Source of the DNA: Myripristis murdjan
Lineage: Eukaryota
DNA: 64,000 nucleotides
Direction: 5' to 3'
Assembly: GCF_902150065.1 (NCBI RefSeq)
Contig: NC_043987.1
Location: 1,625,386 to 1,689,385 of the forward strand
Part shown: in pieces, positions 2,541-63,790 of the stretch
How positions within the stretch are numbered: the stretch's first letter is position 1
Layout: each line of letters begins with the position of its first letter
Position numbers and translations under genes: made by a program
Notes under the pieces: generated by a model
The model's input: only the letters and a program-made list of their open reading frames with translations
Told to the model about the DNA's origin: nothing
Database searches by the model: none

Positions 2541-2855
2541 TCCTAACAGCTAGGAGGGATGTGAAATAATATCACATTTTGCCAAATGGGTGAACTATCC
2601 CTTTATGGTTAACTACAACTAAAATACAAAAAGTCTTAAAAAGTCTTAAAAATTATGTTTGAAACTAAAATAAAAAATAATAGTGAGATAAAATCACATT
2701 TAGGAGGGATGTGAAATAATATCACATTTTGCCAAATGGGTGAACTATCCCTTTATGGTTAACTACAACTAAAATACAAAAAGTCTTAAAAAGTCTTAAA
2801 AACTATGTTTGAAACTAAAATAAAAATAATAGTGAGATAAAATCACATTTGGGTG
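2541..2855. repeat. Two tandem copies of an about 159-bp unit (SINE-head-related), followed by a third partial head
   Basis: Unit taggagggatgtgaaataatatcacattttgccaaatgggtgaactatccctttatggttaactacaactaaaatacaaaaagtcttaaaaagtcttaaaaa(t/c)tatgtttgaaactaaaataaaaa(a)taatagtgagataaaatcacatt occurs at 2541-2699 and 2700-2855. Confidence 0.8.
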
Positions 2856-3433
2856 AACTATCCCTTTAAGCTGCTGATGTTACAGATTCCATATTACAGA
2901 CTGTAGCTGTCATGATGTTTGCATGTCTGCTCTGACTCAGGCTAATAATAACAATGTTCTTCATCATGTGCTGCAGAGAATGTAGTTTGATGAAAAGTTG
3001 AATTGAATTAGTTGAATCAACTGAAGAAAGCCTTTAAAATACTGGACACGTTTTAATGCAGTCACTTTAAATTACAGTTCTTCAATCAAATCATCCAAAC
3101 ATGTTTGATCATATCTGTATATCGAGGAAAGATTGAATTCCTGTGACAGGGCCTGTTTAAGGGCTTATGGGTAAGGTGATGCGGTGTGTTGAAGTACAAG
3201 TAGATTAGAAACTGATGTTATGAGACAAATAAGATTTTTTCAAACAAACAAACATCCATGTTAACTTCCTGTCATTAACTGTACAGTTTCCCACTTCCGT
3301 GACAAGCCTGTCGAGCAGCGGCTCAGCCACAAGAAAACATGGGAAGGGAGCAAGTGACCATCAGTGCGCTGAGGTCACAAGGTGCTGCTGCATGCTGGGA
3401 GATGTGCCTCGCTCATGTTCATTAACCCCCAAA

Positions 3434-3878
3434 CAGGGGCGGATCTAGACAAATATTCATGGGGTGGCAAGAGGGTGGCATGGAGACTTTAAGGGGTGGC
3501 AGAAATATTTTTGCTAATTTAATACCAAACGATCCCATATATCAATATTTGCTTGGAAAACCCCCAAATGAGGATATTTTAACTCAAAAACATTCCATTA
3601 TTGTGGTACATGAGTAAAGCATTGAATAGAAAAGCAAAAGGTGGCATTAGAAATATATATTTTGATTTATTTATTTATTCATTTATCAACCCCTTAAATA
3701 GTGGGAGTGTCATCTTTTGCTGCATTTACTTGCACTCGGACATTTGAGTTCGTTTCCGAACAGCCACAATTAAAAAATAAATAATTAAACTGTCTGAAAT
3801 TGGGGTGGCAACTAGGGTGGCAAGGCATTTTTCTAGGGGGGCAGCTGCCACCCCCTGCCACCCCCTAGAACCGCCTAT
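3434..3878. mobile_element. hAT-like MITE (445 bp) with a perfect 8-bp target-site duplication, CCCCCAAA
   Basis: Imperfect 15-bp TIRs CAGGGGCGGATCTAG (3434) and CTAGAACCGCCTATG (3864-3878). They are flanked by identical CCCCCAAA at 3426-3433 and 3879-3886. Internal GGGGTGGCA / TGCCACCCC repeats are present. Confidence 0.7.
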
Positions 3879-4598
3879 GCCCCCAAATGACTGTCGTCCT
3901 CGTGAAACACTCTGATATTTGGCTGAAAACAAAACACATTTATCTTTTGGAATGAGGCTTTTTGAAAAGGTATAGTGTATAGGTAGTGCCCAGGAATTTG
4001 GTTCCTTCATTTATAAATGTTTTTTTAAGAAGTAATCAGACTGGACACACAAAACAACACCTCAAGCACACAGGCCAGTGCAAACAAAGCCGCTAATATC
4101 TCATAAAAAAACAGCAAATCCCTGTGCCCATTTTTTTTTTTTCATGTAATTACAATTATTTGTGAATGTATTATCAGGTTGTTTCCTCTTGGCACAAGGT
4201 TATTATAAGTTTCCTGCAGATGCTACCTGCTAGATCAACTTTCCATTTCAAAAATAACAACATTCAGTTTCCAAAAGAATGGGCACCAGGCCTTGCTGTT
4301 TTTGTGGACTCACATCACGCCCAGCTCATACAACCAGCACTCCACCAAGTTCACTTCTGCTTTACCTTACATGCACATTTTCCTTTGATTTGCACACTTG
4401 GCTTGGCCGTGTGTGTGAGATGTGTTTGCACCTGATGCATATGGCTCTGGATTAAGCAGCACCCTCCTCCCCGTCTGACAGGTTGCAAGGCTTATGGACG
4501 ACAACATGCCCCGCCCATCTGAGCCTCTTGGTCAAGCTCCCAACCCTTTGGCTCAGTGGCAACCTGTCCTTGTTGAAAGATTTCAGCACATCACAGGC

Positions 4599-7134: not shown

Positions 7135-7629
7135 TTAAAAGTCTGTGGTTCCATGAAAAACCATCAACTGCTGAAGAAGCACTTTGTTCAGTGGATTGTT
7201 CTCTATTTGGAAAAAGAAAAGAAAAGAAAAGAAAAGTACCTTCATTGAACTGGCCCAGCCAAGAACTGTTCTGAAAAAGGTTCTTTGGAGAGTTTTTTTG
7301 GTTTGTTTTGGGTTTTGGTTCAAATTCACCCCTCAAAGAACTTTTCGATGGGTTAAGGGATTCTTTAAAGAGTCATTGAAGAAATGGTTCTTTAAAGCTG
7401 GGGCAGGTGACTTTGCAGAGTGGGTGGACTTTTGTTGACTATGTGAACTCAAGCAGCTCAAACTGCCCCCAACTGAGATTCAGCCCCTCGTCCAGTCCAA
7501 TGCAGTGGGGGAGACGGGGCTGGCAGGGAAACTCCAAATGACAGAATAATTGAATAACTGAAGTGATTCGAATGAGATATTTGGATCAGATTCCACCGAG
7601 GTTATTACAGGGACAGTTCAACCATCTTG

Positions 7630-7785
7630 AGAAATATGATATCTCACTTCCCTCCAGCTGTTCTATAGGACAGTAGTGGTGCTCTCTTCCTCTCATTGTT
7701 ACTGAGTGCTGGATACTGGCTGGATGCTCCACATGCTAACTGTTAGCCTCCTGCCACTGAGCTGAACTTCCCTCCTAACCTTGAT
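7630..7785 (+). mobile_element. SINE-like element copy (TLCD3B intron 2)
   Basis: Sequence ccagctgttctataggacagtagtggtgctctcttcctctcattgttactgagtgctggatactggctggatgctccacatgctaactgttagcctcctgccactgag. Confidence 0.65.
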
Positions 7786-8038
7786 GGAATCTGATCCGAA
7801 TGTCTCATTAGAATCACTTAAGTTTAAGATCTTCCCCTAGACAACCATTGTAGTACTGATATATTCTGTGACAAATCTGTAAACAGGTAAACTGCGTCAT
7901 ATTTATTATATCACAAGTGGACAGCGCTGACTGATTTTTAATAAAGGGCGATTATCAGCCAGGCAACACGAGCAAAAAAAGAAAGCGTCTCTCTCCTGTG
8001 ACTCACTTGGCCTTCCTCTCCCTGTCTCTGCTCCTCAG

Positions 8039-8258
8039 GCACTGGCTGACCAACAACTACATTCTCTTTGCCACACCTTACTTTGCTTTCGACATTTATG
8101 CCATGTTCCTGTGCTACTGGCACAAGCTGCAGGTCAAAGGGCACGAGGAGGCCGGCCACAGGTCGATGGGCGCTGCTGTGGGAGGCTACCTGCGCCGCGA
8201 GCTGCTCATGGTGCTGCATCATGTCTTCATGGTGGCTTTTTGCTTTCCTGCCTCCGTG
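8039..8258 (+). CDS. tlcd3b: TLCD3B-like coding exon 3 (TLC domain core)
   Basis: Acceptor ctcctcag|GC and donor GTG|gtaact. Translation HWLTNNYILFATPYFAFDIYAMFLCYWHKLQVKGHEE...LMVLHHVFMVAFCFPASV matches six-frame ORF 7998-8297 and the TLC-domain motifs. Confidence 0.85.
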
Positions 8259-8686
8259 GTAACTATGGGGAAAACTAAGGATCCGTGGATGCGATAGAGA
8301 TGGGGCGTGAATGAGTGAATAAAGCATGCACCAAGGATTTTACTTGAAACTTTAATTGTCCTGACTAAAGACACAACCCTAGACATAGAGTTGATACGCT
8401 ATATGGAGTTTGACCTCTCAAACATTTACGGAAATATGTTCCACTTCCTGTTTGCAAGTCTTCACTATCAACGTTTTTGTGTGTGTCGTGGCCAGACAGT
8501 TGCAGGTATCAAAATACTGCGACTCAGTGATGATGCAGGCAGCTGAAATATATTGTGTGTAAAATTTCATTGCAAACAAAGCAATGTTGCTCTAACATCA
8601 AGCATTTAGGAATCATGCCTCTTCTCTGCTCCCTTACAGTTACTATGAAATCTATCAAAATGCATCATTTGTGTTCTCTGTGTTCT

Positions 8687-9381: not shown

Positions 9382-9642
<261 letters not shown>

Positions 9643-10262
9643 TAAGATTTAATTTAACAGTGTTAATGTCCTCAAGGGATTGTTCACCCTATTTGAATAA
9701 TTTGATGTTATCCCCCAGCTGTTGTGTAGGACAGTAGTGGTGCTATCTTCCTCTCATTGTTACTGAGTGCTGGATACTGGCTGGATGCTCCACATGCTAA
9801 CTGTTAGCCTCCTGCTATAAATTGGAATAACCTTGACTGAATTCAGGATTAGTGGTAGAAAACACTAATCTTGCCTTTGCTCATGAGATAAACTGCTATA
9901 ATCATGAAAGTGCAGAGATTTCAGCTGTTATTCTTGTCATCAGTGTCAAATGTTCTACATGCTTTTATCACTTGATTAATTCAGTGAGCTTTCAGTGCAC
10001 TTATTGTTGGCCACTTTATCCCTCTGGTTGCTGACAAGCTTTAAGACAAAAGACTAGTCTGCTTAGCGAGGGCTAGTGATAATCCCTGCCTTATGTGATC
10101 TGTGAGGTGAGTGACAGCTGATAGTGGAAACAGACAGTTAATCTGATCCGAATCCTCCTGCATGCCATGGAAGACAAAGCATAATTTGTGCATTGATAAA
10201 TATGTGTCTTTAGCCTATTTAAAGACAGAGATGGGGGAAGCACAACTAATGTCTAGCAGCAA

Positions 10263-15416: not shown

Positions 15417-16709
15417 AATGCTCATGGCTCCCATGCTACTACTTTATATGTGCACTGAAACACTAAACACTTTGTTAATATTTCACATGAAAAGGGCATA
15501 TTGTACTGCTGATCCTTTGCTTGCAATAAAGTTTTTGGTGAAAAACTACAAGCGCTTAGCTTGACACAGCACATACTGCGCAGTAAACCACGTGACCGCA
15601 TACTGTTTCTTCCGGGATCACAACACTGCAACACGCCCACTCGGTCCTAACCCAGTCCAAACACTGTGAAAACATCCACATCAGAAGTCACAAACTGCCT
15701 GACTGGGGACCGAGCCGTCTGCCTCTCGTAAACTAGTGCCAGCGCCCAAAAGGACAAGGTAGGGGCGCTCCAAAGCAACTCATGTCTCAGCCTAAAAAGT
15801 TGAGAACGGGTTGCCATACTCAATTAAAAATATGAGAGTTTAACCTCGCCCTGCGTATTGTCAAAGCTGCATGCCTGCTATAAAGTGTCTGAACATGAGG
15901 TTTGAATAGATAGGTGGCAGACTTCAGATCGGCATGCACCAAACATAGCAAGCAGCGCTTATTATGATCAAATCTGAACTTTCACCAGTGGTTCTCCTGT
16001 TATTGCGGCAATGCGCAGCCCTTAAAAAACAGCGGAGGGCGCTGGCAAACACTGGGAGGCAATGATAAAAGTTGAGATTTAATTAAAATGAAGAGCTGTT
16101 TGGTGTATAAGACATATGCCGCGTTGAAGTGCGTCTGCTTTGGATTGTTAAAATGTCACAAGTCACTACGTGTCTGCATTGGTATTGAGTCGACAAGCGA
16201 GGCAACATTGAACTGATCAGATTTTTTAATGAGATTCGGCGCCGTTTTATTGAAACAAAGTGTATCGGGGGTTAGCATCGACTGAAACATTTGTTTCTTT
16301 CCCTTAGCGAATCAGCCATTTGAAATATTCCTAAAGCATAGGCTACAGTTTCAGTAAGAAGAACTCAAGTGGAAAATTATAATTTTCACAATGTCATAGT
16401 CAATTAAAAAAAAAAGTGGTCAGTGAAATCAAATTGAGAGAATACACATCTGAGGGTGCTAGGCACAAAATGGAGTATATCTTGACTGGAGCTACTGTGA
16501 AAGGGCTGGACTCCCAGCTGGAGCAGATCACTGTGGGAGACTGATGCTGGGCCTGCTACAAGGAAGTGGGCAAAGTGCGTCAGCCCTTTGCCCTGACAGC
16601 AGTCTTTATGATCTGCAATAGGCAGTAGAGGCCCAACACTTCCACATTTGCATGCAGGTGATGTTTCCCTGTGGCTCATGTAGGCTTCCCCTCTCGCTCT
16701 GTGTTGTCG

Positions 16710-17079
<370 letters not shown>

Positions 17080-17399
17080 TATCCAGAATAGTAGAACCAT
17101 GAAAAGCTGAGCATTATAGGCAGCAGGAGAGGAAACGTTATGGCAGAGCAGTTGGACTGGATTGGATTAGATTGTCTAGGTGTTCCTGATAAAGTGGCAC
17201 AACCCTCCCAGTAGACCAGTTGTAGCAGGTAACAGCTGCTTGTCTGAGCCTTAAAGTCAATTTGTATGTCTGTTGGTATGAAACCTGGTTTCAGTAATTG
17301 AATCCAGAATTTCAGCAGTTTCGTTAGTGCATAGCTGGGCTTGCACTCCACATGGGACCACACTTTAAGGGACAGCCATTATTTCACTTCCCCTCTCTA

Positions 17400-17600
17400 C
17401 TGTTCTGTTCTGTGCTTTGTTCCTCTCGAGTGCTGGATACTGGCTGTACACTGTTCAGTGGCAGGAGGCTAACAGTTAGCATGTGGAGCATCCAGCCAGT
17501 ATCCAGCACTCAGTTACAATGAGAGCAAGATAGCACCACTACTGTCCTACACAACAGCTGGAGGGAAGTGAGATATCACATTTCTCAAGATGGTTGAACT
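17400..17600 (-). mobile_element. SINE-like interspersed element (about 190 bp), full-length copy, reverse orientation
   Basis: Consensus, forward orientation: ttaaagggatagttcacccattttgaaaa..gtgatattatttcacttccccccagctgtt.taggacagtagtggtgctatcttcctctcattgttactgagtgctggatactggctggatgctcca(c/a)atgctaactgttagcctcctgccactgaggtggacttccccccagctaac. At least 15 full or partial copies occur in the window. Confidence 0.7.
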
Positions 17601-18473
17601 GTCCCTGTAATAACCTAGGTGGAATCTGATCCAAATATCTCATTCGAATCACTTCAGTTATTCAATTATTCTGTCATTTTCATATCACATTTTCCATAAT
17701 GGGTGTACTATTTGTTTAATGTATAGTGTGTGACTTAACACATTTATTTTTTCAATTCATGTGATCAGTTAAATGGAAAAAAAGTTCAAAGAAACATTGT
17801 TTCTTCATGCTTGTTTTCAGTCGATTGCTTTGTTTAGCAATCTGTGAATATGTCATCAGTTTGTTTCAGCTGACAGATTGTCACAAAGTTCTCCTAAAAG
17901 CCTGTGACTGCGATGAGTCACTGTTTAAAGACAGTGACTGTCCCACAGTAGCTGCTGTTGAAACAGGCACAGTGGAGTGTATTCTGTGGAATGTGAGTGA
18001 TTGACTTAAACTGACAGACTGAGTGAATTCATCATTTTGTGCTGTGTGTGTGAACCTCAGATTAGTTTGTGCAGTAGGTGTGTTTACATACCTGAAGGGT
18101 GTGTCTGACGTTTGACCAAGAGAGGGAACAATCACAACCAAATTTGAGTGACATACTCCAACAGGGATGGGCAGTCACGTGCCACGGAGGGCTGGGAGTC
18201 AAGCTGAGCCCAGGTCAGCCCCCGGCACGCCGTTTCATTGGCTGGTTGTTCCTCTCTGGCTGAATGTGTGTTAATCAATGAAAACTGACTTGAATGGAAA
18301 TCTGCAGACTCTTGACCCTCCGTGGCACATGATTACTCATTCTTATCCGACAAAATGTTTTTCCTCAAATGTTCAGATATTCTTGCACTGATTGCTTGAA
18401 TGGGGGTTATGTTTTTGCCTCATTCTGTCTGTTTGTTTGTAAGCAGGATATCTGCTTAAAAATGTATGTATGG

Positions 18474-19423
18474 TAGTGCTGGGCGGTATACCGGTTCATA
18501 CCGAATACCGGTGTTATTTTTTTTTATGATATGAATTTTTCAGATACCCCAATACCAGTGTGTGTGTGTGGCGCACGTAACATTTGGAACAGCACGCGGA
18601 ACGTAGGGCCGCGGGACATCGACATCGTTGGAGGGGGGACCGTTTTTGCAGTTGCACTCACTAAGCAGTGGGGACTCAGAAAATGAAGTTGAAGAACTTT
18701 TACCAAAAAAAAGAGGAGCTGTGTCGGCTGTTTGTCTTCGGCTTCAAAAAATCCGTCTGGCAAAGGCAAAGAAACTCTCCAGCTACAGCAGCGCACTGAC
18801 ATAGATTGTGTAACAGCAGTGAAGAGTTGCCACTCCGCTCTATTTTCACTGGCTAACAGCAGCACACTGGCTTAGCTTGTCTATTCATAGAAGAGGTATC
18901 ACTTCAGCTTATTTTTTCAATCTATGTTACAGGAATACTACTGCTCATTCATTGGTGGCTGAATTGTTAGGTCTATTTGATAAGTAATTCACATTTTTAA
19001 AATAATAATAATATTTTAACATATTGTTAAATCAGTCAAATTAGTCTGCATATTAATGCAAGTGGCCTTAAATTTGCATAATAAAAAGGTTGTGTATTTT
19101 GACTGCAACGGTCATGCATTCTGATTCCTTCACTTCATTAGAATCATGAGTGCCACCTCTTTGCATCATTTTGTGTTGCCATGTAAACCTGTATTAATAC
19201 TAGGGTGGACACCTTGGACATTAATGTCCAGTATTCATTCCTCATGACAGTAAAATGGGTCATTCTAAGTTAATTTACTGCAGTAATTCTTCTTTAAATA
19301 ATTAGAAAATGTGGTTAACACCCAGTCGTGCATGAAAAATGAAAATACCGTGATATACCGTGAAACCGTTATAATTTTGAAAAATACCGTGATATACATT
19401 TTTGGTCATACCGCCCAGCACTA
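18474..19423. mobile_element. hAT-superfamily nonautonomous element (950 bp) with a perfect 8-bp target-site duplication, ATGTATGG
   Basis: Perfect 13-bp TIRs TAGTGCTGGGCGG (18474) and CCGCCCAGCACTA (ends 19423), in the hAT YARNG terminal pattern. Flanking ATGTATGG at 18466-18473 and 19424-19431. Subterminal ATACCG(T/G) repeats at both ends. No transposase ORF. Confidence 0.8.
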
Positions 19424-19499
19424 ATGTATGGTTTTGCACAAAACTTTGTGGAAAGGTTAAACATGGGCTAAGAAATTGCAAATGATCTTTTCATGCTGA

Positions 19500-19860: not shown

Positions 19861-21117
19861 AAGAAGGCACACAACTTTCCAATGGATTCATGTCACATGG
19901 CAAAATTTGGATGAATTTGTATGACTTCCAAATGGATTCATATAACACCGCGAGATTATGTTGAAAACTTGGTTATGAGACATAGAAGAGCAGCTTAACT
20001 TTTCACACTGATTTATCAGACAGCAGCGGGTGTGGCCAGTCACAAGGTGAAGAACTCCAGCAACAGACATACTCCCTAATTCAACCACATACAAATAGCT
20101 GTTTAATGTTTGAATTTATGAAGCAAAAAACAGTATCTTCAATTAAAAGCATAAAAAATAAGCACTGACAAATGTGTCATTTGGTCAGCAACATGAAGTG
20201 GAAAGGGCGGATCCTGGACTGAGTACAATGGGCATGTAAGCTGAAATCAGTGGTTACAGGCGTGTCCTTCCACCAGATAACATTTATAGGCCTGCTTGAA
20301 TTGTAAAATAGAGGTTATTGGTCTAATTTTACATGTGACCTCATTTTCATATGAAAACATGCTCTCCAGTCTGATCATAGTAAGCCAGTATTGGAATAAG
20401 TGCACGTGAAACTGATGTAGTGATGCGTTCCTGTCTTGTGTCGTGTCTTGGAAGTAAGCAGTAAGTGCTGATGGAGAATTACTATTTTGGATCTGAAAGT
20501 AGAACTGGATTGTTGGTATAGTCCTGAAAACTCAGGGCGTTAGAATGTGAGAGTGCAGCGGTGAGTCGGGGGGGGGGGGGGATGCCATGGATCTTATAAG
20601 CTCTATTGTGTAATCTTGCCATTGGTTCAGTTGGTTCCTTTGTGGTGAGGGTTCAAATTGTCAGACAGCAGGATATTGTTGAAAGAATGATTATATGTAC
20701 ATAAGATTCATTTCCATAGCTACACGGACAACACACAGCTGTATATGGTGTTACTCTATATGTGTTAATTTTCAATCCCACATAAAGAAGGTGACCAGAG
20801 CAGCTTTCTTTCATTTAAGGAATGTTACTAAGGCATGGTCTTGGTAACAAGATGCCAAAAAACTAGGTCGTGTATTTATTTCAAGCAGACTGGGAAACTG
20901 TAACGCTCTTTTGACTGGTCTGCCAAAACAATCCACTGATGAACTTTGATTAATTCACAACTCTGCTGCCAGACTTTGAACTGGAACAGGACAGAGAGAG
21001 CAGATGAGCTGCACCGGCTCCCTTCTTTGGGCTTGATTTAAACAACTTCTTTTACTTGTTTACAGGCTGTTAATGGTTTGCACCAAATGATGGAATTCCT
21101 TACTTCCTTATTCTTTT

Positions 21118-22393
21118 CACTGATTCTTGGGAATTTGGATAAATCATGTCCCACTAAGAAAAATGCTATTTCTGTTTTAATGAATAAAAAGAATCAAGGG
21201 CATAATCAGGGGGTCCTTTTCAAATTTGTAAGGTTCTTTTATAGGTTTATTTTTAATTTTTATTAATTTAACGATTATATGTTGGCCCATGGCCTATAAA
21301 ACCAGCTGTCTTCGGATAGGAGATAATAATTTCAACTTGATTAAAACAACAAAAAGTAATAATTTAATTGAATAATATATTTACCACATGAAAGAGTACA
21401 TCATAATATGTATTAAAAACTACAAACGATGAGTTTTGAACAATATTTACTATTTTGTGGTTGCTCAAAATGTGTCCCACATATTCGTCACCACCGTCAG
21501 ATATATATTTAAAAAATAATAATAAAAAAACTACAAGGTCAGTTTCATTCCTGAGGAGCCCTTTTCAAACCTTCAGCTCTACTGCATGCTTCAAGACCGC
21601 TCAGGCTCCTGGAAGTTTGCTGTTTTCTCTTAAATTTCTTCATATTTTTGGACACTGCTACTGTCACAACCATAACATGTCAACACTGTCACTTTGTATA
21701 AAAAATATTAAATTAGATTATGGAATAAATGTATACTTTTTAAGAAGAGGTCTGATGCAGGTAGCAACAGGAGGGAAACAAGCTGGCTAATGTGAACAAC
21801 TCGTATATCATGTGAAAGAGCAGGTTTTTGTCTCCACCGTCAGACGTCACCACCGTCAGGTTTTCTGTGTGACGGTGATGACTGAAGTCTGAAAAATGCT
21901 TATAACAGAGCTCAGGATTGTTATTTTTTGTACCAAATAGTTAAATAAAGTTGTTAAGCAAGAAGCCATTGACTTGAGTGGTATAACTTTTGGAAATGTA
22001 TGTTTTAATGAGGCAACTGTCACCACCGTCAGATTAGTGTCACCACCGTCAGAGGCACTTATATTGGTTTTAAATGAATATGCTTACAATATGTTTCTTT
22101 GGTGCTGTTGAGTTATTAAAGTAATAGTCTCTTTAATACAAAAATATGTTTTTCAAAAAAAAAAAAAAAAAAACATTACGGTGACGGTGTTGACAAAAAC
22201 AAAGTAGCCTAATAACTGGAAAAATTCTATCCTATTGTATAAAAAAAAATGCAAAATGAGGAGGTTGCACCGGTACATTGCTGAACAGCCAAGACCTTGG
22301 TCTATAATGATATACCTTCAGATTTTATAATTTAACACACTTTTTTTTTTTCAAAATTAAAACCTGTTTTATCCAAATTCCCAAGAATCAGTG
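21118..22393 (+). mobile_element. TIR DNA transposon copy A (1276 bp, nonautonomous): 26-bp TIR CACTGATTCTTGGGAATTTGGATAAA, 4-bp duplication TTTT
   Basis: Perfect terminal inverted repeats cactgattcttgggaatttggataaa and tttatccaaattcccaagaatcagtg. The copy is more than 90% identical over its full length to 32250-33507. Internal CACCACCGTCAG motif occurs at least 7 times in both orientations. Confidence 0.8.
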
Positions 22394-27501: not shown

Positions 27502-28075
27502 TGAAGCAAATAGGAAAAAGGCAGATTTTAAGCCAAAACTCTGAATGTGATCTTGAACAGTTTATTTTTGCAGCATCTGTTACCATGGCGATGAAGCCGG
27601 GTCAAAAGAGAGCCGCCTTCATGACACGGCAAACTCTGGCTTTTGACTCAACTTACCTTGCTAACCTGTTAATCTTGCTTCGTAGTACAGCCCTCTGATG
27701 CAAAATGGTCCAAAAAGGGTTGCAACATGTTAAGCTGGCCTGTACTTGGTCATTAATAGATTTTGAAAGATGTCACATTTTATATCCCACCAAAGCTGAC
27801 CCCAATCGCAGTTGGCAGCATACATAAAGGCCCTTTTTTCCTAGTTTGGTACACACAGGAGGAACTGAAGGTTAACATTTGGAGCATCCAGCCAGTATCC
27901 AGCACTCAGTAACAATGAGAGGAAGATAGCACCACTACTGTACTACATAACAGCTGGGGGGAAGTGAAATAATATCATATTTACAGAATAGTTGAAAGAA
28001 GGGCACCCTTTGTTGAGCCGTAGGACTTCCCTCTCATCTCTGTCCTCCCTCCCCATCTCCTCTCCATGTCATCAG

Positions 28076-30139: not shown

Positions 30140-30810
30140 GGTGAGGGCAAGTCAGCTCAGGACAACAGCAGGAACACTGTTTCCATGACTTTGTTTTTGG
30201 AAACACTGCTCCCATTGCAGTCCATGATTTGTTCACTTACAGAAAATGCCGCTTAACCTTATAAAACATAAAATGTGGAATAATAAAGTTAGGAATCAAA
30301 GGAAGTCACTCTTTGACAGAATATGTTCAGCCTGACCAACAAGATGGTTAGACTGAACATAGTCCATGTTTGTGTGAGACCTACCATGTTTCTTTGCATC
30401 CAACGTAGAACTGACAGCTACTAACAAATCACTAACAGTACTACTACACTAATGCACTACCTTGCAGACAAACGGCATAGTGAAAAGGGGTTCAGCCAGT
30501 TTTTAAAAATGTGATATTATTTCACTTCCATGTAGGTGGTGCTATGTTCTTCTCATCATTACTGAGTGCTGGATACTGGCTGGATCTGCCAAATGCTAAC
30601 TTTTAGCCTCCTCCCATTGAAGTGGACTTCCCCCCGCTAGATTAAAAAAAAAAATAAAATAACCGCCTTTATCAACAGATGTCAGATGCCAAGACACTAA
30701 TTATATGTGCTGCATCTGTCCTAGGGAGAATTTGATGGTCACTTTAAGGTTTTTGACAACAGATGTGTACCAGTAGACATTTTTCACAGCAGCCATTTTG
30801 AGTTGAAATA

Positions 30811-31540: not shown

Positions 31541-32249
31541 AATTCTCTCCAATGGGAATGGGTGAACTATCCCTTTAAGTGACTACTTTTGCTGATTAAA
31601 CCTGCTAGGGTGGTGATGTTAAAAATATTGGCTGACTGCTAACATTATAGGTCAACATTATGGAGCTTCTTTGGTCCAAAGACCACTTTTGGCCCCTGAT
31701 TTCAATCTGCTTTGTCTTTGGGGTATGATGTCAATCAAATGTTGCCACTAAGTAAACAAAGCAAAGATTAATGAGTTGACTCACTCTAACCCTGCAACCA
31801 GAAAAAATGTAGCTGCAAATCCTTATAATTGCAGACATGTCAGACACCTGTTAGACTTTGGCAGAGCGAAACAGGTAGAGGAGGTGGCCTGGGGAAAAGA
31901 AAAAGGATGCAGAAGGAAGGAGAGGAGGTTAGTGGCAGAGGAACTTTTTATTCAGTTTATTTTAGGTTTTATGCAATCTCAGATGTTTTCTGGTTTTCTT
32001 TACTGTGCTCACTCTTTGTCCAGGTTCTCTGTGGAGCAGCATGATAGAAATAGAAAGGCACGCAGGAGAGGGAGGGGCTGCTAACAAAGCAGGCCAAACA
32101 AATTTGCAGTCTTAACTGGTTTAGATGGGTAGTCTAGTACAACCGGTTGATAACAGAGGAAGGCTGTGGTGTTTAGACACACACACGCTGCGCTCACTAC
32201 ACACACACACACACACACATGCACACAAATAATAAAACATATTACAGCT

Positions 32250-33507
32250 CACTGATTCTTGAGAATTTGGATAAATCATGTCCCACTAAGAAAAATGCTA
32301 TTTCTGTTGGAAATTTGCAACATTTTAATGAATAAAAAGAATCAAAGGCATAATCAGGGGGTCCTTTGCACATTTGTAAGGTTCTTTTATAGGTTTATTT
32401 TTAATTTGTATTAATTTAATGATTATATGTTGGCCCATGGCCTACAAAACCAGTTGTCCTCGGATAGGAGATAATCATTTCAACTTGATTTAAAACAACA
32501 AAAAGTAATAATTTCATTGAATAATATCTTTACCACATGAACAAACGATGGGTTTTGAACAATATTTACTATTATTTTGTGGTTGCTCAAAATGTGTCCC
32601 AGATATTCGTCACCACCGTCAGATATATATTTAAAAAATAATAATAAAAAAACTACAAGGTCAATTACATTCCTGAGGATCCCTTTTCAAACCTTCAGCT
32701 CTACTGCATGCTTCAAGACCACTCAGGCTCCTGGAAGTTTTCTATTTTCTCTTAAATCTCTTCATATTTTGGGACACTGCTACTGTCACAACCATAACAT
32801 GTCAACACCGTCACTTCTGTATAAAAAATATTAGATTAGATTATGGAATAAATGTATACTTTTTAAGAAGAGGTCTGATGCAGGTAGAAACAGGGCGAAA
32901 ACAAGCTGGCTAATGTGAACAACTCATGCTGATCATGTGAAAGAGCAGGTTTTTGTCTCCACCGTCAGACGTCACCACCGTCAGGTTTTCTGTGTGACGG
33001 TGATGACTGAAGTCTGAAAAATGCTTAGAACAGTGCTCAGGATTGTTATTTTTTGTACCAAATAGTTAAATAAAGTTGTTAAGCAAGAAGCCATTGACTT
33101 GAGTGGTATAAATTTTGGAAATGTATGTTTTAATGAGGCGACTGTCACCACCGTCAGATTAGTGCCACCACCGTCAGAGGCAGTTAAATTGGTTTTAAAT
33201 GAATATGTTTACAATATGTTTCTTTGGTGCTGTTGAGTTATTAAAGTAATAGTCTCTTTAATACAAAAATCTGTTTTTCAAATTAAAAAAAAAACATTAC
33301 GGTGACGGTATTGACAAAAACAAAGTAGCCTAATAACTGGAAAAACCGATTTTATGAAAAAAATGCAAAATGAGGAGGTTGCACCGGTACATTGCTGAAC
33401 AGCCAAGACCTTGGTCTATAATGATATACCTTCAGATTTTGTAATTTAACGCACTTTTTTTTTTTCAAAATTAAAACCTGTTTTATCCAAATTCCCAAGA
33501 ATCAGTG
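32250..33507 (+). mobile_element. TIR DNA transposon copy B (1258 bp) in MVP intron 7, 4-bp duplication AGCT
   Basis: Same TIRs and internal organisation as 21118-22393. Flanked by AGCT|...|AGCT. Same orientation as copy A. Confidence 0.8.
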
Positions 33508-34131
33508 AGCTACTCTAGTAGAAGGGACTCTTGGGACCTTCAACTGACAACATTCCAGATCTAACCTTTACCATCAGCACTTCATTTCTAACTTAAACCT
33601 CCACCACAACCCACATCTAACCTTAAAGGGATATTTAGAATTTATTGACCCAAGTTTGTATGACTTAGTCGCTCCTATTTATATTGATACATGGATAATA
33701 TCTCCACAGACGACTCCTGCAGTCAGAGTTGTGGCTAGTTGTGGGATTGAACAGTTAGCTAAATCAACAGCATGTAACTGCTAATATTTTGAGACACAAA
33801 TAACAGGTTATAAATGTTTAAAGAGACAGTTAATGCATTTTGAAAAAAAAAAAAAATTCTCTTACCCCCAGCTGTTTTGTAGGACAGTAGTGGTGCTATC
33901 TTCTTCTCATCATTACTGAGTGCTGGATACTGTTTGGAACTATTAGCCTCCTGTCATTGAAGTGGACTTTTTAAAAAAATAATCGTCTTTATCAACATAT
34001 ATCAGATGCCAAGACACTAATTACAGACACTAGATCTGTCCTTGGGAGCATTTGATGGTCACTTTAAGGTTTTTGGCAACAGATGTGTATCAGTAGACCT
34101 TTTTTCACAGTGGCCATTTTGAGTTGAAATA

Positions 34132-39643: not shown

Positions 39644-42494
39644 CACTGGCGGTTCTGGGGAGGGGCCAGCAGGGGCCAGTGCCCCCGTAACACTGTGCCC
39701 CCCCCTCCGAACAAAGATTTTACATTGTGATGCGGCTTTCACATAGCGTGCGGTTTGGGCCGCGCTCTGCGCTGGGTACAGCGCACATAGATCTATGACG
39801 GCGCACACTTGCGCAGAGCAGCGTGCACACGCGGGCCATTTCTTCTTGTGGTTGTTGGCTCTGTACAGGACACTTTAGAGATGCTGTGTCAAACATAGGG
39901 GCATCAGGGGGACGGTGCTGTTATTTCCTATTACTGACAAAGAAATGAGACAAATGAACTGGAGGGAAAACTGGTTCACTGCAGCCACAAAGAATAGAAG
40001 ATATGTTACTTTTTAATTTTTTTTATTTATACATTTATTCAATTTTTTTTTTTTCTTATCGTTGGGCAACAGGTACAGTAGCCCTAAATGGATCTTGAAT
40101 TGGAGCATTTTAAATTAAAAGCTGAAACTGAAAAAACAAAATTGGAAAGGACAAGACACACACACACACACACACACACACACCCCAGGTCCCGTCCCCG
40201 TATCAAGGAGCAGGCGCAGGCGGTATGGTATTAACGGCAACGACCGCAGTCTTCATGTCGGTGACCCTGACCAGAAGCCACGGAGCAGTTCTTGGCACAT
40301 CATGGTGGCGCAGTCTGGACAACAGCACGGTCCTTGCGACCAGATGTTCAGCAGGCCAATGGACCGTCTCCATGACAACAGTGATGCAAGCATTGGCTCC
40401 TCCTAGCAGAAGAGAGCGCCTGCATCCGTCAGCATCACCAGTCTGTGGACCCTCATAGTCCAGTAATTTTAGCCCAAAATTGGGTCAACCTAGGACAAAT
40501 AACAAGAGAAGCAAATTGCAAGAGTTTTTTTCTCTTGCAATTTGTCCTAGGTTTTTTCCTAAAATGACTGGACTAATAGTCTCTGCGCAGGCTGCACCGA
40601 CCACCGGAGACCGGCCTGAGGGGCGCACCTGCTGTGCAGCTAGCAGAGCCAGCTGGAGAGCCCGCCTGGGAAAGGCGAGACTCGCTTGGTCTTTGCTCAG
40701 TCTGAGAGCAGATCCAGCAGATGTGGACACCCCCCCCCCCGCTGAACTTGGAGGGCGGACACACACTGCCGAGCGGCCAGCCCTATACAGACAGCCTAAC
40801 CTGGTCTCAGACCAGCCGAAGACCAACTCCAGCATGTGCGACACACACCTGCTGCCGAGCCGGCTTTTTATGGCCTCTGCTGCTCCGGCCAGTGACGTCA
40901 CCAGTCAACCAGATGATGAGGACGCACGCGCAGCATAGACAACACCTGGGACAGTGCTCAGTACTTTACAGTCACCTGCACAGATACTTGTTTGTGACGG
41001 ACGGCATGACGTCACAATGGCTACAGCTCTACATTCTGCATTGTTGATTGTTTTTTGTTTGTGTCCACGGACACTGAGTATGCAGGTAACACATCCGCTC
41101 AGTTAAAACAGGCTATGGTGCTAGAGTTTGAAATTTGGTCTCAGCCTCAGTTGATGCTGAAATGACGATGAAATAGTCTGTGTGCGATTAAGATGAACAT
41201 TGTTATGAGGTGAGACAAACAACTGGAACTGCAGAGTGTATGGACCTTTTGTTTTGCCACTTGTGCTCCTTGCTTGAGTTTGTACTGTTTCCAATGATGT
41301 GCAGTGTGTTTCCTGTCATTGTGTGTGTTGTTGTTGAGCCTTGCTTTGTTCTAGCACCTCCAGCAGGCCAAAATGTTGTAGCAGCTGTAGTGGTGGTTGA
41401 AATTTTCTCTTGGTGTGTTTTTATCAGGCGGTAACTGGAACCAAGTTCCATAATCTGAATGCAGCTCTGTTTACACAAAGGCGTTCATCATGAAGGGCAC
41501 GCATGCACAGCGTGCACGTATGTGGCGCTGGTTGCTACGCGACTGAAACAGACGCTAGGAAGTAGTTTTCCGTTCTGGCGCAATTTTTCTCTGGTGGACA
41601 GCACAGCAGCTTCGGATGCACCGTGTAAAGAGGCTAATACATTTTTTAATTTATGAATTAGCTGAACTAATGCTTCTTAATAAATTAAGTTACATGAACG
41701 AAGGCTGTATTTTTTTCTCATTTCATGTGATTTCACCTGTTACCTGTTGTGTGTGTGACTTCACATGGAATTTTATAATAAATGTATGACTATACTGCAT
41801 TGTCTTTGCAAGAGTAGTGCATATCTAATGATGTCATTCATCTAGATTTCTAAAAATAAACGCAGACCAGTGCGCTCTTGCGCTCCCTGATCACATACAC
41901 AATGAATGGCTGAGCCAGCCGCGGTCTGTGCCGTGCGCGTGCTCTGTGAAAGCCGCTTCAGAGCGTTGCACCTGGAAACGGCGGTCAGTTTTGTTGATCT
42001 ACGGTGAAAACAGCGAGCTCGAAAAGTCAACCACCTGATGAGAGGCAGTCAGAAGCAAGAAGCGACTACCATGAACAATATTTTATTGTTACAAGGTAAC
42101 AATAAGCTTTTAGAGTGTAAATATGATGATGATTTATTGATGAAGATGATAAGAAGACAGTGGTGTAATGAAGATGTGATGATGATGTTGATGAAACTGC
42201 CTGATAAAGATTTTAGAAGCAGGAGTTTGTACTAAGTGAGGAGTTTGTCTGTACTAAGGTTACACTGAAAAATAGGATGTCTCCATTGTTTCTGTCTCTT
42301 ATACTTGTGTCTCAAATGTGATATTTTGAACCATTCAGTTTGGTTACAATGGGTTATCACTGGTTTTATTGGGAAAAAAATCAGATATAATTTTGAGTCT
42401 TTGTCTTTTTTGCCCCGGGTTGAATGTGCCCCTCTGACAAAACCCCTGGCCCCAGCCAGGGCCCTTCAGTAAAATTGGTCTAGAACCGCCACTG
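39644..42494. mobile_element. hAT-like element (2.85 kb) with a perfect 8-bp target-site duplication, CATCAATG, in MVP intron 10. It has long subterminal inverted repeats and a GC-rich core.
   Basis: Termini CACTGGCGGTTCTGG (39644) and CTAGAACCGCCACTG (ends 42494). Identical CATCAATG at 39636-39643 and 42495-42502. Subterminal inverted repeats gcggctttcaca(t/g)agc at about 39745 and about 41950 (reverse). Core 40560-41050 is CpG-rich with two TGACGTCA palindromes. No transposase ORF. Confidence 0.7.
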
Positions 42495-59659: not shown

Positions 59660-59866
59660 GTTTAAAACAGGGCTGTTAAACTGGTGCCATGGAGGGCCAA
59701 GAGGCTGCAGGCTGTTTTTCCAACCAAAAACTTCCAGGTGATTTCACTGATTCCTCCATTCTCTCTGCTTTTAAGCTGGGGTAATCAGTGAAGTTTTTGG
59801 TTGGAATGAAAACCTGCAGCCACTTGGCCCTCCATGGCACATGGTTTGACAGCCCTGGTTTAAAAC
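59660..59866. mobile_element. Palindromic MITE (about 207 bp, roughly 95-bp arms)
   Basis: Left arm gtttaaaacagggctgttaaactggtgccatggagggccaagaggctgcaggctgtttttccaaccaaaaacttc. Its reverse complement recurs on the right (gaagtttttggttggaatgaaaacctgcagccacttggccctccatggcac...ccctggtttaaaac). Confidence 0.65.
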
Positions 59867-60959: not shown

Positions 60960-62644
60960 GTGTGATTTAAGTTAACTTTTTTTGGTTTCTGAGGGAGTTT
61001 TTGGCTTTTATTTTGCAGATGGACAGTGACTTGAATATGCAGATCTAATTTTTTTTTTTCTTCTTGTTTCAAAGACCTAACTAGCCACTAAGGCCAGCAG
61101 GCTCAGTGGGTCCCTGTGTTCATGCTACTTAACCTCTCACCAAAGCAGCTCTGGTTCTTGAACTGGTTTTGCTCTGGATTTTGGGAGCCAAGGTGCTGGT
61201 CGGTGTTTGCAGCAGTCTGGAGTGACAGAGGGGTCTCCAGGTTGCTGGCCAGCAGTGCTGTGTCTGAGTTCAGCCCCAGCAGTCAGGACGCTTCTTACCC
61301 TGTCAAGCACTACTTCTTGCTACAATGTTTAATAATACTTCTCCATCTTTTCCTCAAGTGTATGAGCTGTCTGAATTGAAAGTACTAGTTTTTGTTTCTT
61401 CAGCAGACCACAGCATGCTCTTGTAGAATAAGACACGCCTACTTTTGTCATCATGGTTCCCACTTAAGGTCTATTTTTTTTTTTTTTTGCTTCCAGATGG
61501 GAACCATTTTTTCAGCTTCCAAACAAATTTGTTTTTGGTCAAAACTCTCAGAACAGTTCATATTTTTATACTATACATATACTGAAACGGAATCTGTTCC
61601 TTACTGGTTGGAAAGTCCTGTGAGCAACTTGGTTATGAGTTGTTAGAATTCAATTGTGTGTGATTTTCAAAATCATCATATTACGATAAGCCAGCTTGCA
61701 AGCTTATACTAGTTAGCCAACAATCAAAAATGGGCAAAAACAGCCAAATGAGTTTTGAAAGGCTGTAATCAACTCATCTTTTTTTATTACAAATTTGTAT
61801 TTTTTTTTTTTTTTTTTTTGGCAGTTCGTGACCTTTGACTACTTATTTGAAGTCATTTCTTGCTAATCTGCTCATTGCCTTTTCCTAAGGTTTTGAAAGA
61901 ATTCAAGTGAATTTGCTCAGGAGTCAAAGGGTTAGCAAAGCACATCAGCACTTAGATATTAGTACAGTGAAGTTCACATGCATTCACTTTGAAGCAGGGC
62001 TCCCAGTGGTCATGAAGCTCTCGTTATATCATTCAGAAATGTTTATTCCAGGTAGGAAGCTTCTTAAAATCATTGGGTAAGTCACTTTACTGGAATATAG
62101 AAAAATGTTTTTTCCCACTTTTCTCATGCATTTCTTTCTTTGTAAGATTATTTCTTTTGCATTGTCACCATGGGAGCTATAGTTCTAGTGTCCAGCATCC
62201 AGTAACAATGAGAAGAAGATAGCACCCCGACTGTCCCACATAACAGCTAGGGGGGAGGTTAAATAATATCTCATTTTTCAAAATGAGTGATTTAACCCTT
62301 TAAAGAGTGTTAGTGCCTGTGAGTGAATGCTGAATGTCATTTAATATTAGTAGAGTGTCAGAGCAGAGCAGTCGGCCTCCTGGCTTCTGGTGTTCCACAG
62401 CGCTCGGTCTCCTGACATTCTGCTGGGCTTCCCTGGACCGTCCGGCTGCCTCCGTTCACCTGCACACCACAGCACACACACTCTGCTCTTAGTCGTCATG
62501 TACTTACATATTCCTGATGCTTCAAGTGTGATGTAATCTCACCTGAAGTAGGCCTACTGCTCATCTGAAACCTGAAATTCCAGAACTGCCTACTCTACTT
62601 TGCCTTTCTCCTTGCTTTCCAACTGTCTGGATACTAATACCGAC

Positions 62645-63609: not shown

Positions 63610-63790
63610 TTTAAAGGAATAGTCCACCCATTTTGAAAAAAAAAATGGATATTTCACTTCCCCCCCAGCTGTTCTGTAGGACAGTAGTGGTGCTGTCTTC
63701 CTCTCATTGTTACTGAGTGCTGGATACTGGCTGGATGCTCCAAATGCTAACTGTTAGCCTCCTGCCACTGAGATGTACAGCCAGTAATCT
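63610..63790 (+). mobile_element. SINE-like element, full-length copy (+)
   Basis: Same family as 17400-17600. Other copies or fragments: 1540-1600, 2541-2610, 2700-2770, 7630-7785, 9710-9825, 10830-10880, 23720-23810, 27875-27990 (-), 30525-30640, 31000-31070, 33865-33960, 49455-49560, 62180-62300 (-). Confidence 0.7.

Follow-up and report, generated by a model that had tools for sequence, protein, structure and literature searches.

How did a 950-bp sequence with perfectly matching ends come to lie between two genes of a teleost fish, and what has it kept of the mobile element that its ends suggest? The sequence occupies positions 18474-19423 of a window of 64,000 nt, which is the whole stretch of Myripristis murdjan DNA (contig NC_043987.1) analysed here, and a first-pass annotation, made from the letters of the window, had read it as a non-autonomous hAT element. 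The evidence described below makes it very probable that the sequence derives by internal deletion from a ZBED1-like hAT DNA transposon, is non-autonomous, and has been inserted in intergenic DNA of this teleost.

The terminal inverted repeats (TIRs), TAGTGCTGGGCGGTAT on the + strand at 18474..18489 and ATACCGCCCAGCACTA on the - strand at 19408..19423, are perfect over 16 nt (100% complementary); the first-pass annotation had rightly described them as perfect, with a length of 13 bp that is too short. The TIRs of hAT elements are short (about 10-25 nt) and begin with YARNG, a rule which the TAGTG start of this element fits. Directly outside the TIRs stand two exact copies of ATGTATGG, the left one at 18466..18473, abutting the 5' TIR, and the right one at 19424..19431, and the 8-bp target-site duplication (TSD) that had been claimed for the element is therefore real. 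The pre-insertion (empty) allele would be expected to read …AAAAATGTATGTATGGTTTTGCACAAAAC…, with a single ATGTATGG.

It could be objected that an inverted repeat and the 8-mers flanking it have come together by coincidence and that there is no mobile element at all; in fact, the left-flank 8-mer lies within a short ATGT-ATGT-ATGG iteration, which makes a local repeat slightly likelier. When the whole window was searched for pairs of identical 8-mers, separated by 60-5000 nt and enclosing an inverted repeat that abuts them, the only case combining a perfect 8-bp duplication with a perfect TIR of at least 10 nt was 18474-19423, leaving aside a microsatellite at ~16.7-17.0 kb. In 40 first-order Markov shuffles, no case with a TIR of at least 10 nt was obtained, cases with at least 8 nt amounted to 0.075 per shuffle, and the 16-nt perfect TIR together with the 8-bp perfect repeat appeared in 0/40. 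A scan tolerating mismatches (TIR with at least 12/16 matches, low-complexity 8-mers left out) gave three cases in the window versus 0.37 per shuffle. Moreover, as detailed below, the termini and arms recur in other genomes beside different 8-bp duplications, and the arms align to autonomous hAT elements, all of which leaves coincidence with a practically negligible probability. As regards the microsatellite, it is a compound (TG)n/(TA)n tract (window 16650-17100) that produces many spurious TIR and TSD configurations in naive scans.

The first-pass annotation had made its reading depend on the recurrence of the termini elsewhere, and the exact 16-nt termini do recur, in WLWD01 and MDSQ01 contigs as well as in Eleginops and Xenopus. 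An exact 16-mer scan of a metagenome and viral collection yielded 128 matches, mostly due to chance and in bacterial DNA, and the only true relatives among them were found in the eukaryote-like contigs of WLWD01/WLWI01 and MDSQ01. The first of these, a 'metagenome' assembly with long eukaryotic contigs of up to 362 kb, contains four complete copies of ~570-610 bp, a fifth split over two adjacent loci, and one copy of 3,350 bp (L084:4741-8090), plus one-ended or partial matches (the other loci being L021, L022, L029, L031+L074, L054, L057, L066 and L103). The six complete or reconstructable WLWD01 copies have perfect 8-bp TSDs of their own (GTGTTTGC, CTTCCAAC, GTGTCAAT, GTATGGAA, ATTGCAGC and TCACACAC). 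Only the first 21-123 transposase codons are retained in the short copies, which are thus internal-deletion derivatives as well, and internal deletion can be taken as the typical mode of decay in the family. Judging from its near-identical ~600-bp copies and its full-length copies, the WLWD01/WLWI01 family has apparently been active recently. In the MDSQ01 copies the arms are ~82-95% identical to those of the window element, and one of them (L122:9505-10203) is compatible with greater age and decay, its TIR having a mismatch of one base and its flanks lacking a clean duplication of 8 bp.

Full-length elements have also been located in vertebrate genomes. Those of Eleginops maclovinus (L129:3741-6895, 3,155 bp, TSD GATTGAAG) and Xenopus tropicalis (L130:384-6750, 6,367 bp, TSD AGTTAACT) end in perfect 16-nt TIRs, the same as in the window, and that of Labeo rohita (L131:2750-5971, 3,222 bp, TSD AAGTGATC) has one mismatch at each terminus. 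The full-length hAT with matching TIRs that the earlier reading had suggested looking for is therefore present in Eleginops, Xenopus and WLWD01, and with one-base variants in Labeo. A further element of about 3 kb, in Acanthopagrus latus (L133:2750-5769, TSD GGTGTGAG), belongs to a different family starting with TAGGGCTGCAC…; it is a ZBED1-like hAT of a sister subfamily, with termini TAGGGCTGCACAATTAATCG / TAGGGCTGCACGATTATGGCC that have only TAG-GCTG in common with the window's family and a transposase 50-54% identical to the three vertebrate proteins of that family. Ten related copies in other genomes are each flanked by their own perfect 8-bp duplication, the decayed MDSQ01 copy being the exception. 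No such termini were found at the locus of an Amphimedon transposase homologue, and the sole match of a literature search with the TIR string was an unrelated Bacillus primer.

The assignment to hAT is supported by the proteins encoded by these relatives. hAT elements are not alone in producing duplications of 8 bp, and the window element lacks any directly classifiable protein, both of which might favour another superfamily of DNA transposons with duplications of ~8 bp, such as P element, Mutator-like, Merlin or Zisupton. However, the proteins of the full-length elements that share these termini and have homologous arms contain a hAT dimerisation domain and a BED finger, and align to Hermes across the catalytic region. 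Thus, the Eleginops protein P0148 (637 aa) matches Dimer_Tnp_hAT at 5.7e-23 and zf-BED at 2.7e-9, the Xenopus protein, also of 637 aa, matches the same domains at about 5e-23 and about 1e-9, and precomputed ZBED1_RNase-like matches point the same way. The two long open reading frames (ORFs) of the 3,350-bp WLWD01 copy contain Dimer_Tnp_hAT (3e-19), a hAT-like RNase-H domain (1.6e-5) and a weak BED finger; once joined, they align to Hermes over residues 189-621 (E ~1e-17) and to the BED domain of ZBED1 (2.5e-5). Furthermore, the coding stub of the window element itself, described below, matches those hAT transposases. Another superfamily is consequently extremely improbable, and the hAT interpretation holds, given that relatives with the same termini encode hAT transposases and that the blocks shared with the Eleginops copy follow in the same order in the window element.

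Proteins homologous to the WLWD01 transposase, with 40-50% identity, are widespread (many teleosts, Xenopus, sponges, limpet and starfish) and are annotated as 'E3 SUMO-protein ligase ZBED1-like' or 'zinc finger BED domain-containing protein 1-like'; sponges are among the best named protein matches of WLWD01. WLWD01 and the vertebrate family agree in all of the first 20 terminal nt, with transposases that are only 40-44% identical. Two target-site consensus sequences are distinguished among hAT elements, nTnnnnAn (Ac-type) and nnnTAnnn (Buster-type). In the small sample of ten TSDs inspected by eye, T occurs at position 2 in 6/10, A at position 7 in 5/10 and T at position 4 in 7/10. From the ZBED1-like annotation and the match to Hermes, the classification of these sequences leans towards the Ac-type subgroup.

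The likeness to these relatives extends inwards from the TIRs. The 5' subterminal arm (18474..18560, + strand) has ATACCG at element positions 15, 25 and 32, and the 3' arm (19070..19423, + strand), whose homologue in the autonomous elements is their 3' non-coding end, has it at 872, 882, 911 and 935; the three copies of the former and the four of the latter are all oriented alike (7/7, + strand), and CGGTAT is found at position 11. Such repeats in both arms had been noticed in the first-pass annotation, and counting bears it out: the terminal 2x120 nt hold 8 of the 14 occurrences of ATACCG/CGGTAT in the window, where 0.023 would be expected (Poisson P ~2e-18). In the arm alignments (A1 for the 5' arm, A2 for the 3' arm), ATACCG keeps its positions in the copies of the window, Eleginops, Xenopus, Labeo and MDSQ01, and conservation spans ~90 nt at the 5' end and ~130 nt at the 3' end. 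By analogy, the 5' subterminal arm is presumed to be a candidate transposase-binding region.

What the element has lost can be read from its comparison with the Eleginops copy. Three homologous blocks follow in the same order in both elements: nt 1-87 of the window element match Eleginops nt 1-87 (85% identity, E 2e-22), nt 218-282 match nt 303-369 (76% identity with a 5-nt gap, E 9e-9) and nt 597-950 match nt 2821-3155 (74% overall, E 1e-63), the last ~110 nt of the 3' arm being about 95% identical when the alignment is judged by eye. The middle block corresponds to the start of the transposase ORF. Between it and the 3' arm ~2.45 kb of coding interior (autonomous nt 370-2820) are missing, and in their place stand ~314 nt of unrelated filler (element nt ~283-596, window 18756..19069), for which neither the autonomous elements nor any other sequence retrieved gave a significant match, and in which a 28-nt direct repeat (D1, 82% identical) is present. 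As the coding sequence is gone while the blocks stay colinear, the element is best explained as an internal-deletion derivative.

The middle block keeps a frameshifted remnant of the transposase N-terminus (18682..18755, + strand). A profile of this N-terminus ('…EELVPKRGAVSVVWRYFGFKKSD…'), built from ten vertebrate sequences (nine teleost and one Xenopus), was split at Trp. Its first half has its top six-frame match in the window at 18682-18732 (14.1 bits, E 0.0065; the runner-up reaches 4.2 bits), and the second-best match of its second half lies 5 nt downstream, on the same strand and in another frame. The remnant reads 'EELLPKKRGAVSAV' and then, in the shifted frame, 'FVFGFKKS', which corresponds to ~codons 15-34 of the Eleginops transposase, the in-frame start codon having been lost. 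In the DNA alignment, the change of frame is due to a 5-nt deletion at the Trp codon (GTTTG-----TCTTCGG vs GTTTGGAAGTTTTTTGG); this alignment (E = 9e-9) supports the remnant more strongly than the profile match does. The rest of the BED finger (profile part C) has no match in the element, and a weak minus-strand resemblance to a BED motif, 'GNTSNLLHHL' at element nt 323-427, was accordingly discarded as due to chance. When 120 ZBED1-like transposases were compared by tblastn with the whole window, nothing was obtained at E <= 1e-3, neither an autonomous copy nor a further coding remnant.

Several observations weigh against this derivation and should be considered together. The N-terminal remnant is short, and the E value of 0.0065 for its first half in six frames is significant, not overwhelming. 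As to the ~314-nt filler, the interior ORFs of both strands, X-joined, had no matches in the protein collection. There is no autonomous or second copy of the family in the 64-kb window, hence no source of transposase there, and the nearest autonomous element found is only 74-85% identical. Finally, the binding of transposase to ATACCG is assumed by analogy. Because of the 74-85% identity of the arms, the elements of Eleginops, Xenopus and Labeo are to be regarded as relatives of the window element and not as its direct parent.

With these reservations, a deletion derivative of this kind would be unable to move alone, and its mobilisation would depend on transposase that an autonomous family member supplies in trans, as in Ac/Ds, hobo and Hermes. 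By analogy with these systems, the transposase would recognise the subterminal ATACCG repeats through its BED domain and cleave at the ends of the TIRs with its catalytic core, leaving hairpins on the flanking DNA, and integration would proceed over an 8-bp staggered cut, whose repair would give rise to the duplication. An internal deletion with filler is the product that could be expected from interrupted gap repair after excision. The element does not correspond to a strict miniature inverted-repeat transposable element (MITE; under about 600 bp, with high copy number and no coding remnant), and 'deletion derivative' is the better label because it is 950 bp long and keeps a transposase stub.

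On functional grounds, the closest analogue is the Ds-del class of the maize Ac/Ds system. Like the window element, maize Ds-del has short TIRs, an 8-bp duplication and hexamer repeats in both arms, and has kept the arms, lost the transposase interior and become dependent on transposase in trans. The subterminal hexamer of Ac is AAACGG. Unlike maize Ds, the window element resides in an animal host, belongs to a ZBED1-like lineage, has other termini and another hexamer, and contains the ~314-nt filler. The Ds classes are described in PMC3260210. By sequence, the closest relatives are the ZBED1-like elements with TAGTGCTGGGCGGTAT termini of Eleginops, Xenopus and Labeo. Hermes, of Musca domestica, is more remote: the transposase of the family aligns to it distantly, over the catalytic and dimerisation regions, and its termini and subterminal motif differ from those of the window family, on which no biochemical study was found. 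The BED domain of Hermes binds subterminal repeats, according to a preprint (bioRxiv 10.1101/2022.09.16.508221).

How long ago did the element arrive? The first-pass annotation had called it a young insertion on account of its intact ends, and this is partly sustained. The probability that all 48 nt of TIRs and duplications stay unchanged is 0.62 at 1% divergence, 0.38 at 2% and 0.09 at 5%, and falls to 0.05 at 6.2%; since all of them are intact, divergence after insertion should lie below about 6%, which is a bound and not an age. CpG dinucleotides provide a second indication. Their observed/expected ratio amounts to 0.72 in the element, with values of 1.18 and 1.86 for its two arms of 100 nt, whereas the 10-kb flanks give 0.39 and the window gives 0.36. 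In alignment A2, inspected by eye, the window copy keeps 5/5 of the CpGs of the 3'-arm consensus and three MDSQ01 copies keep 1-2/5, their losses being typical TpG/CpA changes. Intact ends and undecayed CpGs together suggest a fairly recent insertion whose age is bounded only, and a rough argument from the CpGs places the divergence after insertion probably at the order of 1%.

Alternatively, the element could be an old, fixed hAT relic with ends that have stayed intact by chance, neither young nor mobilisable, and silent on recent activity. The missing second or autonomous copy in the window, the frameshifted stub without its start codon and the 74-85% identity to the closest autonomous element found would all agree with such a relic, and at 2% divergence the ends would still be intact 38% of the time. 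On the other side, the 48/48 unchanged nt would have a probability of <5% beyond about 6% divergence, the CpG content is ~2x the genomic background overall and 3-5x in the arms, and the consensus CpGs of the arms have almost all been kept, unlike in the MDSQ01 copies. Besides, the frameshift and the deletion, being features of a non-autonomous lineage, may predate the insertion. An old relic is thus rather unlikely, while still deserving consideration beside the fairly recent insertion favoured here.

The position of the element with respect to the neighbouring genes has also to be considered. The first-pass annotation placed it between TLCD3B and MVP, and it does lie between a TLC-domain gene and MVP, the former being supported at the level of the domain only: weak TLC-domain matches are found in + strand exons at 7935-8294 and 9382-9642, and the last exon ends at ~12164. 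MVP, likewise on the + strand, has its exons at 23091-47636, with strong Vault and MVP-shoulder matches, limits derived from three teleost MVP loci and best matches in teleosts of several orders (90-92% identity, none close to 100%). The element is consequently intergenic, with 6.3 kb separating it from the TLC-domain gene on its upstream side and 3.7 kb from the first coding exon of MVP on its downstream side. None of ten ORFs flanking or inside it was found by exact look-up in the protein collection.

This position is all that favours a co-option of the element as a regulatory module of MVP or of the TLC-domain gene, such as a piece of an enhancer or promoter. When the DNA upstream of MVP in Champsocephalus esox, Poecilia latipinna and Osmerus mordax was compared with the window, only MVP exons aligned (77-91%), the intergenic DNA showing no alignment among the teleost MVP loci retrieved; the Rfam scan of the window gave nothing; and the features that the element does present serve transposition and not a host function. 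Co-option is therefore very improbable, and an intergenic transposon insertion remains the preferred explanation. In Champsocephalus esox and Poecilia latipinna (L134 and L135), a gene of Caskin type lies upstream of MVP, in the place that the TLC-domain gene has in the window, which could reflect a different synteny or a different MVP paralogue; at the Osmerus mordax locus no upstream gene was called.

The distribution of the family raises the question of horizontal transfer. The full-length copies of Xenopus and Labeo are 92.7% identical in DNA over 2,300 bp, their proteins are 86.7% identical and their non-coding 3' sequence is 90.7% identical over 634 bp; both copies lie in scaffolds of Mb scale and are flanked by 8-bp duplications of their own. 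Such similarity between frog and carp is far too high for vertical descent, which makes a horizontal transfer between the two lineages likely from sequence comparison. A transfer of this type has been documented for the Repbase family hAT-6_XT, common to Xenopus tropicalis, ray-finned fishes and turtles, whose non-autonomous derivative hAT-6N1_XT_ESp has been amplified in a perciform fish, a darter, and is described as a highly amplified region of ~800 bp in the main text and of ~1 kb in the supplementary alignment (PMC11008031). The identity of the window family with hAT-6_XT was considered and rejected, because the termini differ (…AGTTTGACACCCCTGTTCTA in hAT-6_XT vs …CATACCGCCCAGCACTA in the window family), and neither TAGTGCTGGG nor its reverse complement CCCAGCACTA was found in the supplementary text of PMC11008031; the likely frog-carp transfer would thus concern a distinct family, and would add to the documented cases of hAT horizontal transfer among aquatic vertebrates. 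That the window element itself belongs to a hAT lineage in horizontal spread through aquatic vertebrates, and can still be mobilised in this fish, is an unlikely proposition, and the support for a spreading lineage comes from the related loci and not from the window. If an intact autonomous copy exists in the host genome, an invading family could have produced this insertion recently, and the site could be polymorphic.

Teleost genomes commonly contain hAT elements with internal deletions, whose mechanism is textbook knowledge; the element is ordinary biology, meaning little beyond annotation. From a practical point of view, it is preferable to mask the region as a DNA transposon and not to take it for regulatory DNA of MVP, and a ZBED1-like hAT family of wide distribution is defined by TAGTGCTGGGCGGTAT termini together with ATACCG repeats. 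With its intact ends, the element would be a candidate marker of insertion polymorphism, provided that the family is active in this species.

The first-pass annotation had also listed two more hAT insertions with perfect 8-bp duplications. Both exist and both have perfect TSDs, with TIRs that are imperfect and, for the first, an end at 3879 and not 3878. The first, at 3434-3879, has TSD CCCCCAAA and termini CAGGGGCGGATCTAGA / CATAGGCGGTTCTAGG (TIR 12/16); the second, at 39644-42494 (2.85 kb), is intronic in MVP, is flanked by TSD CATCAATG and has CACTGGCGGTTCTGGG / CAGTGGCGGTTCTAGA as its termini (TIR 13/16), and a six-frame Pfam scan of it found no domain in any frame. Neither of the two has a coding remnant. 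They have in common a terminus type, CAnnGGCGGnTCTAG, unlike that of the main element, and G-rich subterminal repeats (GGGTGGCA / GGGGCCAG). By structure, namely the 8-bp duplication and the shape of the TIRs, they are putative hAT elements. The recent hAT activity in this genome that had been deduced from the three insertions is not sustained, as the window holds no autonomous copy and the two other elements are not proof by themselves.

Other repeats are present in the window. A near-palindromic MITE of 190 bp at 59668-59857 (TSD GTTTAAAA, termini CAGGGCTGT…, TIR 13/16, long complementary arms) is hAT-like in structure. A dispersed repeat of 1.3 kb occurs just upstream of MVP (21117-22393) and in an MVP intron (32249-33507), with 91% identity between both copies. 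Finally, a short interspersed repeat of ~100-225 bp, similar to a MITE or to a short interspersed nuclear element, is found in at least eight copies, in both orientations and with 80-97% identity (7536-7760, 9712-9815, 17455-17679, 27856-27996, 30536-30635, 33817-33938, 62187-62304 and 63611-63778), one of which is located ~800 bp upstream of the hAT insertion.

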